In this document: in pieces, positions 56,999 through 63,370 of the stretch
Position numbering within the stretch: position 1 is the stretch's first letter
Layout of the letters: every line of letters begins with the position of its first letter
IMG/VR virus record: IMGVR_UViG_3300013119_001061
Strand: one strand, 5' to 3'
Origin: a virus
DNA: 64,000 nucleotides
Notes under the pieces: model-generated
Databases searched by the model: none
Told to the model about the DNA's origin: nothing
What the model saw: only the letters and a program-made list of their open reading frames with translations
Made by a program: the position numbers and the translations under genes

Positions 56999-57502
56999 AT
57001 GTACGATTTTTTAGAATCCCATATGTGGGTTACATACTCACTAACAATGACAATGCTATTCCTTGGATTGCTTAAGACAAAGCTGCTTCACGGGCTCAAG
57101 CCCATCATTATTGAGGGCAGCAAAATCCCAGCAATACTTTCATATATTGCTCCGCTCACAATCGGAGCCATCTCAATATTCCCATTCGTAATTGCGAGAG
57201 CCCCAAAAGGCACAATGTCTGAGACAACTCGACGACATGAGACAATACACTTCCACCAGACGATGGAGCTATTAATAGTCGGAATGCTAGCAATCTATTT
57301 GTATGACTATTTTGTCGGGCTAATCAAATATAGAAACGATTGGGAAGGACAAAACAACTCCAGAGGTTGGCCGTATTTATCTGCAGGAAATAAGGCATAT
57401 CATAGAACCCGCGCAGAGCAAGAAGCATATGAGTCAGAAGACATTGAGGATTACCTCGTTAATCGCAAACGCTGGGCATGGATCAAAAAATACAAGGTGT
57501 AA
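56999..57502 (+). CDS. Membrane protein with HExxH motif
   Basis: Hydrophobic helices; RHETIH..Q, EQEAY. Confidence 0.65.
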   Translation: MYDFLESHMWVTYSLTMTMLFLGLLKTKLLHGLKPIIIEGSKIPAILSYIAPLTIGAISIFPFVIARAPKGTMSETTRRHETIHFHQTMELLIVGMLAIYLYDYFVGLIKYRNDWEGQNNSRGWPYLSAGNKAYHRTRAEQEAYESEDIEDYLVNRKRWAWIKKYKV

Positions 57503-57525
57503 ATCGCACCAAGCTGCTGTATAAT
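57497..57525 (+). promoter_or_regulatory. Sigma70-like promoter for the deaminase
   Basis: GTGTAA-N17-TATAAT. Confidence 0.65.
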
Positions 57526-57574
57526 ATAAATGATTCAATAAAGGGGTCAGAATACGGAGTCGACGTTATGTCGA

Positions 57575-57982
57575 GTGTACTATAAATTAAAAGCCATTGC
57601 TCAGAATTATTCTGAAAATGCACACAATTACAACATCTCAGCATGCGTCACAGTAGGCAAGACGAGGTTCTACGGCTGGAACAGCTATGACACTCATCCA
57701 TTTGCCAAGCGTGAGCTCAAGTGTTCATCTACTGGCGAGAGCGTGGTAAGTTATTGCTACCATGCTGAGGTTCATGCACTTCAAAAGGCACTGAGGTTCA
57801 CGCAGAAAATGAAATCCGCTGATATTGCGGTAGCAAGAGTTCTGGCAGATGGAAGCTTTACAATGGCAAAGCCCTGTGAACACTGCCAGGGTAAAATGAG
57901 AGATATTGGCATCAATCCATCAAAGATCAAGTATACGAATTGGGATGGAAACTTTGTTACGCTTAATTCGTATGAGTGTTGA
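57575..57982 (+). CDS. Zn-dependent cytidine/dCMP deaminase-like protein
   Basis: HAE ... KPCEHC. Confidence 0.85.
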   Translation: MYYKLKAIAQNYSENAHNYNISACVTVGKTRFYGWNSYDTHPFAKRELKCSSTGESVVSYCYHAEVHALQKALRFTQKMKSADIAVARVLADGSFTMAKPCEHCQGKMRDIGINPSKIKYTNWDGNFVTLNSYEC

Positions 57983-58008
57983 AAATCTACAAATCTCCTG
58001 GTTATAAT
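57979..58008 (+). promoter_or_regulatory. Sigma70-like promoter for dnaE
   Basis: TTGAAA-N18-TATAAT. Confidence 0.65.
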
Positions 58009-58046
58009 CAAATACAAATCACTTATAAAGTGGGAAGGTAAATAAT

Positions 58047-59762
58047 TTGTCACATTCAGATACGAAAGGAGACTTCGGAAGCTTTGTGCGCCCCAATCGA
58101 TTCGTCGGTTTACACGGGCACTCAGGCTTCTCGTAGTCGACTTACGACGGACTCGGCTATCCAGCTCAGCATATTGACTTCGTTCTTGACAACGAAATGG
58201 ATGCATGGGCACTAACTGACCACGGTCACGGCTCTGGCTTAGCACATGCTCACAAGCACTTCGACAAAATGAAGAAGGCCGGCCGCAAGTATCGGCAGGT
58301 ATACGGTGTTGAGTTCTACTTCGTCGAGGATCTCGATGTTTGGAAGCAAAACTACCTGGGTCACAAAGAAAAAGTCAAGGCTGAGAGAGATGCAAAGAAA
58401 GCTGAGAAGCTTGCAACAACCGATCTAAGCTCTGACAATGAAGATGATCTCAAATCTGAAGGACACACCATTGAGAATGAGGAGGAGTCAAAAGGCGGAG
58501 GTAAGGGGAAACCCGAATGGATGCGCCGCTATCACCTCGTAATCACTGCAAGAAACGCAGCAGGCCTAGCCAATCTTTTCACGCTAGTAAAGAGAGGATA
58601 CACCGACGGCTTCTATCGGTTCCCACGAATTGACTTCAAGCTTCTCAAGCAATACAGCGAAGGTCTAACTGTAAGCTCAGCATGCATTGGCGGAATTACC
58701 GCAGGACGAACATTCCAGCAATTCCCGGGCGTTGATTTCATGGATCTTAAGCCTGATTTGCTAGATGACCCGTCAAAGATGAAGAATCTGATGGGTGTGC
58801 TCGGAAACATAACAGATCGGTTTGTCGATGCAGTAGGACAAGACAACTTCTTCTATGAGCTGCAGTTCAATAAGCTCCCAGCCCAGCATCTATCTAACCG
58901 TGCGCTTCTCGAACTACACGATCAGACGGGAATCGGGCTTATCACCACATGTGACTCCCACTATCCCGGCAAAGAATTATGGGAAGCCCGGGAGCTATAT
59001 AAGAAGCTAGGCTGGATGGGAAATGATCCGTCACCTTTGCCGAAGTTCGACGAGCTAAAGTGTGAGCTTTATCCAAAAAATGCCTCAGAGGTGTGGGATG
59101 AGTTCGACCGCGACTGGCATGCCTATGACTTTTACAAAGGCAGGGAAGAGCTTATTAGAGATAGTGTAGAGAGGACACACGATATTGTCTGGGATCGTTA
59201 TGAAGATGTATGGGTCGACTCTAAGGCTAAGCTACCAAACTATGCTGTGCCTCAAAAGGGACATGCATGCTATCCTGAGGCACCCAAAGATACACCCTTT
59301 CAGCAGCTTGGAAAGCTTGTAAAAGCAGCAATGATCAGTCATGATATGGCCGAAAAACCTGAGTATGTTGCGAGGATCAAAGAAGAGCTAGCTGACATTA
59401 AGTTCCTCGGATTTGAAAACTACTTCCTGACAATGTATGATGTTTTCCACTTGGCCGAGAAGAAAACTCTCTTTGGGCCTGGCCGCGGCTGCTTTTTACC
59501 TGATACACGTGTAAAAATGTCCGACGGATTAATGAACACAATTGAAGCAATTTCTCCCGGTGATCACGTAATTGACGCATACGGAGAAAGTCAAGAGGTT
59601 ATAAAGAAGTTTGTATATGATATCGAGGAAGATATTGTTGAGCTTGAATTTGATGATGGTATCGTAATTAAGTGCACAGTAGATCATAAGTTCTTGACGT
59701 CAAATCGAGGATGGGTTGAGGCTCAAAACTTAAGCGACGAAGATGTTATTGTTGATGTTTGA
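58047..59762 (+). CDS. dnaE: DNA polymerase III alpha N-terminal half (PHP domain) plus split-intein N-fragment; in-frame TAG at 58134-58136
   Basis: FVGLHGHSGFS*STYDG lies upstream of the tracked ORF (58197); ALTDHG, YGVEFY, SACIGG, DSHY, YFL, GPGRG|CFL. Start (TTG 58047 or GTG 58086) is uncertain. Confidence 0.9.
59490..59759 (+). mobile_element. Split intein IntN (90 aa)
   Basis: CFLPDTRV, GDHV, CTVDHKFLT..RGWVEA..L. Confidence 0.93.
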
Positions 59763-59808
59763 TATTTATAAATAGTTTAGTTATTCGACCCGGCCCGATA
59801 TACTTATA

Positions 59809-60771
59809 TTGAGAGGGCAAAATATGAAAACTCGAAAAACACTTTCAAAAGAAAACAAAAAATATATTGACAAACTTCTAGCAGGCAATGACCAGATGTT
59901 TATTAGTCAAGAGATGCTCGAAGTCATTAAGAAAGAAACTGGCCTGACAAGAATGGCGATAAAGCACCAGATATATGATCTTGAATTTGATTATAATTTT
60001 GGGTATTCATGGGGTGAGTTTGATAACAAGACACCCGGAAAGGCACGAGTTTATTTTAGATGCAAGACGTGTAATTGCAAATACAGCATGTTAGCGATCA
60101 AGCTTAGAGGACGAACGTATAGCAACGACCCGATATGCCCAGATCACTATGCTAAGATTGTGACTTCGTCAAAAGTGTGGCGAGAAAAGAATAGAAGTGC
60201 ACAGCTTGTTTCGCAAAATTTACCAGAGGCAAAAGAGAAGCAACGAGTTTCACAACTTCGACGACATGCACAGCCCGGAATGAAAGAAAAATATCGCCAG
60301 ATCGGCTTAACACTGTGGAAAGATCCGGAGTATGCAAAAAGAGTATCAAGCTCACTTCGAGAAAAATGGAAAGATCCGGAGTATGCAAACAAGGTGATGA
60401 ATAACTCAAAGCAACAATATCATGGTAGCTACAGCGGAATGAGGTATCAAAGCTTAATTGAACTATCTTTTATTCTGTGGATGGTTAGTGTAAAAAGAAA
60501 TATTGGGCGTTATAATCTAGAGGGAATAAAATGGGATGGAAACAGAAGCTATTATCCTGATTTTATTGTTGATGGAAATCTAATAGTTGAAGTCAAGGGG
60601 ACCTTAAAGGGATTTATGTATCAAAGAGAAGACGAGATAAAGAGAAAGCAATCTGCTTTAATAGAGTGGTGCAAAGACAGAAAATATGAGCAAAGAATTG
60701 TTGTAAAGAAAGACATACCGAAAGAATTCTACGAGAAGGCAAGGAAAGTGCATGACAAAATTAATCTCTAA
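59809..60771 (+). CDS. Free-standing endonuclease between the dnaE halves (PD-(D/E)xK, TnsA-like)
   Basis: YQSLIELSF, YYPDF, VEVKG; WKDPEYA repeats; ATG 59824 is a possible start. Confidence 0.85.
   Translation: MRGQNMKTRKTLSKENKKYIDKLLAGNDQMFISQEMLEVIKKETGLTRMAIKHQIYDLEFDYNFGYSWGEFDNKTPGKARVYFRCKTCNCKYSMLAIKLRGRTYSNDPICPDHYAKIVTSSKVWREKNRSAQLVSQNLPEAKEKQRVSQLRRHAQPGMKEKYRQIGLTLWKDPEYAKRVSSSLREKWKDPEYANKVMNNSKQQYHGSYSGMRYQSLIELSFILWMVSVKRNIGRYNLEGIKWDGNRSYYPDFIVDGNLIVEVKGTLKGFMYQREDEIKRKQSALIEWCKDRKYEQRIVVKKDIPKEFYEKARKVHDKINL
60316..60389 (+). repeat. 23-bp direct repeat encoding WKDPEYA twice
   Basis: tggaaagatccggagtatgcaaa at 60316 and 60367. Confidence 0.85.
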
Positions 60772-60859
60772 AAAGCTTGTTCCGTATGATGGAAAAGTAA
60801 TTGACCTATGTGTTGAAAATTCACACACGTATAACGTTGAAGGAAAAGCAGTTCACAAT
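60752..60859 (+). mobile_element. Split intein IntC (36 aa)
   Basis: MTKLISKK, VIDLCVENSHTY, terminal HN, Ser as +1 residue. Confidence 0.93.
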
Positions 60860-63370
60860 TCAGGCGCCGGCAGTTTAGTCAATTACTTGCTAGGAATCAC
60901 GCAGATTGACCCGATTCCATACGGTCTACTTTGGAGTCGATTCCTCGGCAGACACAGGACATCGTGGCCGGATATCGACTCGGATGCAGGAGATCGAGAT
61001 GCACTCATTGATGCCGCCCGAGAGCTGTTTGGTAATGATGCTGTTATTCCCGTAAGCAACTTTAATACACTCAAGCTAAAGTCAATTGTCAAGGATGTTG
61101 CTAAGTTCTATGATGTTCCTTTTCAAGAGGTAAATATCGTCACAGGACCATTACAAGCTGACGTAGAGCCTCATGCTCGAGATGCTAATACTGAGAAGTC
61201 GGTATTCGTTTTGACCCACGAGGATTGCATGAAGTATTCAGAGAAATATCTTGCTTTCATGACGAAATATCCGCATGTAGAAGATCATGTGAGCACGTTG
61301 TTTATGGAGCAAAAATCAATTGGCCGTCATGCAGGCGGTGTTCTTATTGCAGATGCACGTGAGCTTGAGAAGACAATCCCACTAATCTCAGTTCGAGGTG
61401 ACTTGCAAACTCCGTGGACTGAGGGAATGAACTTCAGAAACCTCGAAGATAATGGGTTCATTAAGTTTGATTTCCTCGGACTCACACTGATGAAAGATGT
61501 GGAAAATTGTATCCGAAGAATCCTCATTAAAGACGGGCAAAAGAATCCATCGTTTATGGATATCAAGGAATTCTTTGATAAAAACTTGAATTGTCGTACT
61601 ATTAAGCAAGATGATCCAAGGGTATGGGAGAATGTATATCACCAAAAGAACTTTGCCCCAGGCATCTTTCAGTTTACTGCGCAAGGAGCTCGAAACTTCT
61701 GTATGCAAGCTAAGCCTGAAAACATTGAGGAGCTCGGTGCAATCACAGCAATTTATCGACCGGGCCCACTGAAGGCAAATGTTCATATTGATTATGTCGC
61801 AGCAAAGAACGACCGAGACAATATCGTGTATGACCACCCAGTGATTGAGAAGATCCTCGGTGCAACTTGTGGATTCATCACGTTTCAAGAGCAGTTCATG
61901 ACTTTGGCAGTGGAACTAGCAGGATTTACGCCCGGCGAATCTGATAAAATGCGTAAGACGCTGGTGAAGAAGTCGCTTGACACAATCGGCAAAAAAGGTT
62001 CAGAACGTGATGCATTGCGCAAGAAGTTTGTTGAAGGTGCTGAGAGATTACATGATCTAGATCCGAAAATCACACATGCACTCTTCGACAAGATCGAGTT
62101 CTTCAGCCTGTATGGGTTTAATAAATCACATGCTATCTCTTACGCAATTGACAGTTACTACGCAGCATGGCTCTTTACTTATCACCCCAATGAGTGGATT
62201 GCAGCTGTTCTTCAATCTGAAAATGGAAGCCCGAAAAATCTGTCAAAAGCAATCCGCGAGGCAAAGGTTCTTGACTTCAAGTTCGAACAGTCAGACATCA
62301 ACTACTCGGGCATTGAGTGGGAATTTAACTATGAAAAGAACGCATTCATTCCGCCGCTAACCTCCATCAAAGGTTTGGGAAAGACGGCGATGGCAGAACT
62401 GATTAAGCATAGACCCTATGCGTCAGTCAAAGATCTGTTCTTTAATAAGCGCGGTGAATGGCGATTCTCAAAGGCAAATAAGACAACCTTCGGAGCGCTA
62501 TGTCAAATTGAGGCATTCTCATCACTTGACGAGCTTGAAAGCGGAGATATTGAAAATCACCGACAGCTTTATCACTTGATTGTGGACAATTACGATAAAA
62601 TCAAAAAAGCAAATGATGGAAAACAAAAGTGGTTGGATAAGCTTCCTGTCCTCGCTGAAAAAAATTATGAGGAGGTCAAAAAGATTATCAAGGTATTCGA
62701 AAAATACAAGAATGAAGACACTGCATTAAAAATGAAGGCAGTTGTTGAAGATTCAAATGTCATGGATTGGAACTATATTGACAATCTTTCATCTGAGCTT
62801 AGGGTATACGAGCACAATCAGCCTCGACGACAGCTGCAAGTCGACAGATGCTTCACCCGCCTAGAAGAGAACACTGTAAAAAGAGATAAAATCTTAGATA
62901 GGCTTGATCAATATTTCGATCTCAAAGAAGCAATCAAGGATTATGAAGATATCGAAGACTGGGCAAGAGATGAAAAGATTCGGCTATATCAAGAGATCAC
63001 GTCAGCAATCAATAACGAGCTTGTATTTCCGTCTGAAGTAATGGATAGAATCACGAGGACTGATATGCCGTCAGTATGTGAAATTGAGGGCGGCCAAAAG
63101 GCTGTGGCATGGGGTTGCATCGCCGAGGTTCAAAAGAAGAAGACGAAAAAGGGAAAAGATTTCTATCGTCTCAGAATGATCGATGAGCAAAACCGAAATT
63201 GCTGGCTCAGGGTTTGGGGTAAGTTCTTTGATTGGGGCGAAGAAAGAGGGCAGAAGGTTTATTATGAACCCCCTTCATTCTCTTATTGGTTGATGGAAGT
63301 TGACGTCGATCCGAATTGGGGAGCATCTACTGCAGCATGGAAAATGAGAAGGATACCTCTTGTTGATTAA
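60752..63370 (+). CDS. dnaE: Split-intein C-fragment (36 aa) plus DnaE C-terminal half
   Basis: ...VEGKAVHN|SGAGSLVNYLLGIT, PDIDSD, GRHAGG, KFDFLGL, GIFQF, YRPGP, QEQ, YGFNKSHA. Confidence 0.95.
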   Translation: MTKLISKKLVPYDGKVIDLCVENSHTYNVEGKAVHNSGAGSLVNYLLGITQIDPIPYGLLWSRFLGRHRTSWPDIDSDAGDRDALIDAARELFGNDAVIPVSNFNTLKLKSIVKDVAKFYDVPFQEVNIVTGPLQADVEPHARDANTEKSVFVLTHEDCMKYSEKYLAFMTKYPHVEDHVSTLFMEQKSIGRHAGGVLIADARELEKTIPLISVRGDLQTPWTEGMNFRNLEDNGFIKFDFLGLTLMKDVENCIRRILIKDGQKNPSFMDIKEFFDKNLNCRTIKQDDPRVWENVYHQKNFAPGIFQFTAQGARNFCMQAKPENIEELGAITAIYRPGPLKANVHIDYVAAKNDRDNIVYDHPVIEKILGATCGFITFQEQFMTLAVELAGFTPGESDKMRKTLVKKSLDTIGKKGSERDALRKKFVEGAERLHDLDPKITHALFDKIEFFSLYGFNKSHAISYAIDSYYAAWLFTYHPNEWIAAVLQSENGSPKNLSKAIREAKVLDFKFEQSDINYSGIEWEFNYEKNAFIPPLTSIKGLGKTAMAELIKHRPYASVKDLFFNKRGEWRFSKANKTTFGALCQIEAFSSLDELESGDIENHRQLYHLIVDNYDKIKKANDGKQKWLDKLPVLAEKNYEEVKKIIKVFEKYKNEDTALKMKAVVEDSNVMDWNYIDNLSSELRVYEHNQPRRQLQVDRCFTRLEENTVKRDKILDRLDQYFDLKEAIKDYEDIEDWARDEKIRLYQEITSAINNELVFPSEVMDRITRTDMPSVCEIEGGQKAVAWGCIAEVQKKKTKKGKDFYRLRMIDEQNRNCWLRVWGKFFDWGEERGQKVYYEPPSFSYWLMEVDVDPNWGASTAAWKMRRIPLVD

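Follow-up and report, generated by a model that had tools for sequence, protein, structure and literature searches.

How a phage makes its replicative polymerase when a stop codon stands inside the first metal-binding motif of the gene is the question raised by the dnaE locus of an uncultured marine phage (IMG/VR record IMGVR_UViG_3300013119_001061), of which a stretch of 64,000 nucleotides, hereafter the window, was analysed. PHP motif I of dnaE is broken in frame by the nine bases TCG-TAG-TCG (58131-58139), as the sequence-only reading of this DNA had claimed. The reading frame from TTG 58047 runs for 29 codons through the motif and ends in TTC TCG, after which come the TAG, a second TCG and the codons ACT TAC GAC GGA, which continue the motif, and the first ATG past the break (58197) opens an ORF of 521 codons. 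From its distance of 8 nt to an upstream GGGAAGG we infer that TTG 58047 is the start codon of a new dnaE 5' exon, with GTG 58086 as a possible alternative. The read-through translation matches the Pfam PHP domain (PF02811, E 3.8e-20) over residues 22 to 273, a match that spans the stop at residue 30, and tblastn matches to phage DnaE begin at residue 19, upstream of the stop. The promoter proposed in the earlier reading upstream of the HxH segment is confirmed as a consensus match only, with 11 of 12 consensus positions, and is the best of four such sites in 57400-58400, where shuffled sequences lead to an expectation of 1.6. The coordinates of all features are given in Table 1.

Table 1. Features of the dnaE region of the window, with what each assignment is based on or how it is placed
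Feature	Position	Strand	Basis or remark
Promoter-like site, TTGAAA - 18 nt - TATAAT	57979..58008	+	Inside nuclease relic, upstream of new dnaE start
Relic of cassette nuclease, last 20 codons, ending WEGK + stop	57983..58045	+	C-termini of relatives' nuclease ORFs compared
Shine-Dalgarno-like GGGAAGG, made by the W-E-G codons of the nuclease relic	58032..58038	+	8 nt before TTG
Cassette-derived dnaE 5' exon, new leader and duplicated PHP motif I, 29 codons	58047..58133	+	Putative start
Take-off codon TCG	58131..58133	+	End of 5' exon
In-frame TAG stop directly 3' of take-off codon	58134..58136	+	Sequence; contigs of two studies
Landing codon TCG, taken as resident Ser of PHP motif	58137..58139	+	Match to L014 and L019
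Resident dnaE N-extein, rest of PHP domain and start of polymerase core, to GPGRG	58140..59489	+	
N-terminal split-intein fragment fused to N-part of DnaE	59490..59762	+	Intein_splicing match below cut-off
Free-standing nuclease-like ORF between dnaE halves	59809..60768	+	phrog_945, 21138, 22215; Phage_endo_I weak
C-terminal split-intein fragment (to 60859), +1 Ser at 60860, DnaE C-extein	60752..63370	+	DNA_pol3_alpha profile

The TAG in the dnaE motif is real and not an assembly error, because contigs of two independent studies of marine metagenomes carry 58131-58139 unchanged: Logan contigs from X1 and X4 (study P1) and from X5 (study P2) keep all nine bases, with no indel. TAG is an ordinary stop in this phage, terminating 12 of the 53 long ORFs in the window, which is 94% coding under the standard code and in which no tRNA genes were found. 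A blastn search of the region against GenBank phages returned no match. Only one population variant was seen between the landing codon and ATG 58197 (58160 T>C), and it is synonymous. Further downstream, a co-occurring strain (contigs from X4 and X5, and a bubble in X1) shows 23 differences within the 80 bases 58195-58274, mostly at third codon positions; this strain matches the window exactly on both sides of these bases, and the stretch, some 60 nt downstream from the gap, has the appearance of a short recombination patch.

The nearest relatives in IMG/VR (L014-L019 and L024, with 76-77% protein identity) have an uninterrupted dnaE. When 6 nt (58134-58139) are taken out of the window, what remains is exactly the motif of the intact L014 and L019, with six residues from the second His to the Asp. 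Across intact relatives, counting both loci and database proteins, this spacing is 6 in 140 cases, 7 in 22 and 8 in none, 8 being the spacing that a readthrough product of the window would have. The 162 intact relatives thus bear out the earlier claim that removal of 6 nt yields the correct motif spacing and that readthrough would leave two extra residues.

With respect to related phages, we observe that the break is recurrent and that its form varies. Of 80 related loci collected without bias, 13 have their break at the PHP motif site or, in the case of L053, three codons upstream. We distinguish 19 take-off-to-landing strings in related phages, with skips of 5, 6, 7, 8, 9, 10, 11, 12, 15 and 38 nt; the 38-nt skip is found in one locus only (L053), and the other gaps span 5-15 nt. 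In all 19 classes a Ser take-off codon is immediately followed by TAA, TAG or TGA (the pattern scan that added further interrupted loci demanded TAA or TAG, and the unbiased 80-locus set shows the same stop arrangement), the second and third bases of the landing codon are compatible with the take-off codon, and the consensus, two residues and then Asp-Gly, resumes directly 3' of the landing codon. Related dnaE 5' ends show the same pattern of codon, stop and compatible codon at this site, class after class. The short filler holds a further stop in five classes, and a second stop in the take-off frame is present in four (L057/L117, L099, L106 and L126). Take-off and landing codons are both Ser codons readable by one tRNA in 12 of the 19 classes, and in the other seven the second and third bases match; these seven, whose landing codon is off Ser at the first base, may use a +1 or +2 shift without re-pairing. 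The gaps fall in all three frames, with 10 of the 19 classes (skips of 5, 7, 8, 10, 11 and 38 nt) out of frame.

The window carries the smallest in-frame gap seen, consisting of the stop and the resident Ser codon. A second carrier of this 6-nt version was found neither in IMG/VR nor in JGI metagenomes, where three chance matches turned up, none of them in dnaE. At the other extreme, the 38-nt gap of L053 (approximately L053:1360-1450, about 80 nt upstream of the motif Asp codon) has an identical TCG at both ends, its take-off codon being the Ser right after HxH, one motif position earlier than in the other classes. This gap holds a 10-bp GC hairpin followed by TTTT; it looks like a small gene 60-like element and resembles an intrinsic terminator too.

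The origin of these breaks becomes apparent from pairwise DNA comparison of interrupted loci with their intact sisters, in which the interrupted relatives prove to have the native dnaE 5' end twice, the additional copy lying upstream. This 5' remnant comprises the native leader and, as far as its Phe codon, the motif, after which a stop occurs; its distance upstream is about 1.1-1.2 kb, shrinking to about 260 nt in loci that have lost the nuclease. An ORF of about 300 codons, exemplified by the intact nuclease gene at L121:5027-5932, separates the remnant from the new leader in relatives, so that the cassette order is native 5' remnant, nuclease gene, new leader, duplicated motif and gap (L121, L094, L131, L097, L057, L122 and L099). 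Zinc-ribbon-like Cys pairs mark the N-terminus of the cassette ORF, the C-terminal domain of this ORF matches T7 endonuclease I in a profile search (PDB 1m0d, E 1e-9; a single-sequence PDB search with the cassette nuclease gave no match), and it matches PHROG endonuclease and homing-endonuclease families, with conserved residues that fit an E...PD...E-x-K nuclease core. The intact nuclease ORF ends in W-E-G-K, and these same codons form the ribosome-binding site of the new dnaE start; GGGAAGG likewise precedes the new-leader ATG in many interrupted relatives.

In the window, the 63 bases from the upstream deaminase gene to the start correspond to the last 20 codons of this nuclease, the end of the relic matching the nuclease C-termini of eight relatives at the same place (L057, L122, L128, L106, L108, L110, L134 and L121). 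The nuclease relic, leader, duplicated motif and gap are thus present, without the cassette nuclease gene and without a native dnaE 5' remnant, which was not found in the window by blastn, tblastx or a six-frame motif scan. In L088/L124 and L051/L130 (about 260 nt upstream of the motif) the nuclease ORF is nearly gone, its few remaining final codons being joined to the remnant; these cassettes are intermediates between the full element and the relic of the window. In L097 (IMGVR_UViG_3300028388_004678) two native 5' remnants stand one after the other, at 1170 nt and at 2026 nt from the motif on its upstream side, as though two invasions had hit this site.

When the interrupted state is mapped on a FastTree phylogeny of 99 DnaE body sequences, a minimum of 15 changes is required, well-supported branches dictating 12 of these, and interrupted genes stand as sisters of intact ones. 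Furthermore, pS is 0.29 in the cassette part versus 0.60-0.71 in the resident gene. Because of the number of changes on the tree, the placement of interrupted beside intact genes and the lower pS of the cassette, these sequence comparisons indicate horizontal spread of the cassette. In this data set the motif starts 15-26 codons after the start codon in interrupted genes versus 5-17 in intact ones, and the nascent chain at take-off is about 26-35 residues long in interrupted genes; we treat the longer leader as an observation on this set and not as a requirement for hopping.

Taken with the arrangement in relatives, the TAG of the window is probably the scar of a cassette junction in dnaE, with full-length DnaE being made by an obligatory short translational bypass. 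A mobile nuclease cassette would once have inserted itself into PHP motif I of dnaE, between the Phe and Ser codons, and brought along expression signals of its own, a leader that forms a new N-terminus, and another copy of the motif ending in a Ser codon and then a stop, after which the resident gene would continue from its own Ser codon. The nuclease gene of the window would since have been deleted down to its last 20 codons, from which the ribosome-binding site would still come. Peptidyl-tRNA(Ser) on TCG in the P site, next to an A-site TAG that is slow to be decoded, would unpair, the mRNA would slip by 6 nt, and the peptidyl-tRNA would re-pair with the second TCG; decoding would restart at ACT 58140, so that nine nucleotides specify one Ser. 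The idea of a minimal bypass from TCG to TCG across the TAG, which the sequence-only reading had put forward, finds strong support in the 19 stop-containing gaps, their compatible landing codons and their selected flanks, all of which argue for such a hop; what that reading had missed is the context, the junction of a nuclease cassette, which the architecture of the relatives reveals. Its further suggestion, that the bypass limits the level of polymerase or ties it to Ser-tRNA or RF1 status, is not supported by these comparisons.

Support for translation on both sides of the gap comes from substitution patterns in relatives. For the 9-nt class, 12 unique sequences give a pN/pS of 0.20 between the start and the take-off codon and of 0.078 (at a pS of 0.60) over 27 codons beginning with the landing codon; these values pertain to this class and not to the 6-nt version of the window. 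No start codon lies between the landing codon and the first downstream ATG, and in the window there is none between 58140 and ATG 58197. Judged from these ratios, both flanks of the gap are translated and under purifying selection in the 9-nt-class relatives. Every one of the 19 classes retains the HxH motif in its cassette copy, although synonymous changes have occurred there.

These observations bear most directly on the possibility that the polymerase begins at ATG 58197, the upstream HxH segment being a decaying, untranslated cassette relic and the enzyme working without PHP motif I. This start opens the long ORF and is the choice of gene callers, and among the 120 best database homologues 38 lack the motif, 15 of these beginning at the Met equivalent to 58197. 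We nevertheless consider such a start unlikely: the 19 codons from the landing codon to this ATG encode the conserved continuation of the PHP strand, the stretch before the equivalent Met in interrupted relatives is the very one with the low pN/pS, the HxH copy is retained throughout the classes, no Shine-Dalgarno-like sequence was noted before the ATG, and the lone population variant in this stretch is silent. With regard to annotation, the 15 of 120 best homologues that begin at this Met show that gene callers cut these polymerases short at the next Met.

If a suppressor or near-cognate tRNA decoded the TAG, the window, where the gap is in frame, would yield an unbroken protein with two extra residues in the motif. 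We regard this readthrough as quite improbable, however, as the resulting spacing of 8 occurs in 0 of the 162 intact relatives, TAG is in regular use as a terminator in a window with no tRNA gene, and the gaps of sister classes shift the frame or contain two stops in a row. Ten classes change the frame, and readthrough or a recoded stop is therefore not the explanation for the family. Termination followed by reinitiation, with a 29-residue HxH peptide and a separate body assembling non-covalently, would agree with selection on both pieces, and dnaE is already made in two pieces via a split intein; we nonetheless judge a two-piece motif very improbable, given that no ATG, GTG or TTG is found at or near the landing codon in the window and in most classes and that the break lies inside a metal-binding motif. 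An in-frame stop in an essential motif looks like a pseudogene, but a dead polymerase gene in a defective phage, or a sequencing error, is hardly credible in the face of nine identical bases in the contigs of two studies, a remainder with more than 1300 open codons, counted across the split intein, downstream strain differences that are mostly at third codon positions, and the recurrence of such breaks, flanked by conserved sequence, in many lineages.

Returning to the short bypass that we favour, we find no significant hairpin and no internal Shine-Dalgarno-like stimulator. The hairpin described in the sequence-only reading does form as drawn, with the landing TCG in the loop, and at -4.2 kcal/mol it is no better than chance (p 0.56 versus shuffles); neither is it common to the 19 gap classes, which have a mean z of -0.06 and a strong hairpin only in the 38-nt class of L053. 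In windows of 60 nt and of about 30 nt around the gap, in all classes, folding is no better than in shuffles or in intact genes. No Shine-Dalgarno-like element lies in the gap of the window 5' of the landing codon, the gap there being the TAG only.

To our knowledge, programmed bypass has long rested on one well-studied case, T4 gene 60, plus a few candidates. The gene 60 bypass is said, in work by Huang from 1988 and by Bonocora from 2011, to lie within a mobA homing-endonuclease element. Stop-hops in E. coli that lack stimulation were reportedly found to be inefficient by Weiss and colleagues in 1987, and the mitochondria of Magnusiomyces capitatus reportedly hold many short mobile inserts, the 'byp' elements of Lang and colleagues from 2014, that are skipped between matched codons. 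The latter are 27-55 nt long, GC-rich, mitochondrial and spread across many genes, whereas the gaps described here occupy one fixed site that is linked to a nuclease gene.

The likeness to T4 extends to both the gap and its surroundings. As in gene 60, take-off and landing codons are matched and a stop follows directly after take-off; as in the mobA element, a host gene is split by a mobile nuclease cassette whose 3' end is where the gap is situated, the cassette extends the protein with a new N-terminus and duplicates a homologous stretch, and the gap often outlasts a nuclease that has decayed or disappeared, which holds for T4 itself and for the window. The differences are equally clear. The host sequence is the PHP motif of dnaE here and the topoisomerase (II large subunit) gene in T4, the nuclease is a T7-endonuclease-I-like PD-(D/E)xK enzyme with zinc-ribbon repeats instead of the HNH enzyme MobA, T4 has a gap of 50 nt, compared to 6 nt in the window and, for the majority of relatives, 5-15 nt, and there is neither an above-chance take-off stem-loop nor a Shine-Dalgarno-like element in the gap here. 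The dnaE cassette is an independent analogue of T4 gene 60/mobA, with no sequence homology; the architecture of the mobA/gene 60 element in T4-like phages has been described by Manning and Atkins (bioRxiv 10.1101/2022.08.31.505936). By analogy with T4, the gap may shield the site from the cassette nuclease.

What defines a laboratory stop-hop is a stop placed between matched codons, and a review from 2016 states that no natural in-frame stop-hop was known (PMC5009743). The laboratory E. coli stop-hops (Weiss et al. 1987, via PMC5009743) are synthetic and of low efficiency, in contrast to a natural and recurrent arrangement in an essential gene here. Closer in setting are the terminase candidates of the Streptomyces phage phiHau3 (PMC10732093), in which bypass has likewise been proposed for a gap of about 10 nt in an essential phage gene; there, however, take-off is by a rare UUA sense codon and tied to host physiology, and no nuclease cassette is involved. 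Our literature searches found no published description of a dnaE bypass. The full picture, in which the replicative polymerase depends on an obligatory 6-nt stop-hop and the locus belongs to a second, widespread family of bypass cassettes, independent of T4 gene 60 and equipped with a T7-endonuclease-I-like homing nuclease, whose gap (5-38 nt, in any frame) both immunises the site and forces the hop, is one that we hold to be somewhat more plausible than its negation. If so, the smallest conceivable bypass would serve an essential gene, and homing-nuclease cassettes can leave recoding-dependent junctions behind. The roughly twenty natural variants in length, frame and stop number at one fixed site would constitute a ready-made mutational series for ribosome hopping.

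In addition to the break in the PHP motif, the same dnaE is also a 'fractured gene' further downstream (59490-60859), with an intein N fragment after GPGRG, a free-standing nuclease-like ORF and an intein C fragment. The C fragment is about 36 residues long and ends in HN, followed by Ser, and in the match to Pfam DNA_pol3_alpha the N-part stops at profile position 65 and the C-part resumes at position 66. This layout of split intein and free-standing nuclease is the arrangement described by Dassa et al. 2009 (PMC2677866). The free-standing ORF is related to the cassette nuclease in its core, with a common PDF...E-x-K-G. Just upstream of dnaE lies an ORF of the dCMP/cytidine deaminase family (57575-57982; Pfam PF00383), preceded by an ORF that matches a PHROG annotated as protease (56999-57499); the nearest intact relatives carry other genes where the window has these deaminase and protease-like ORFs.
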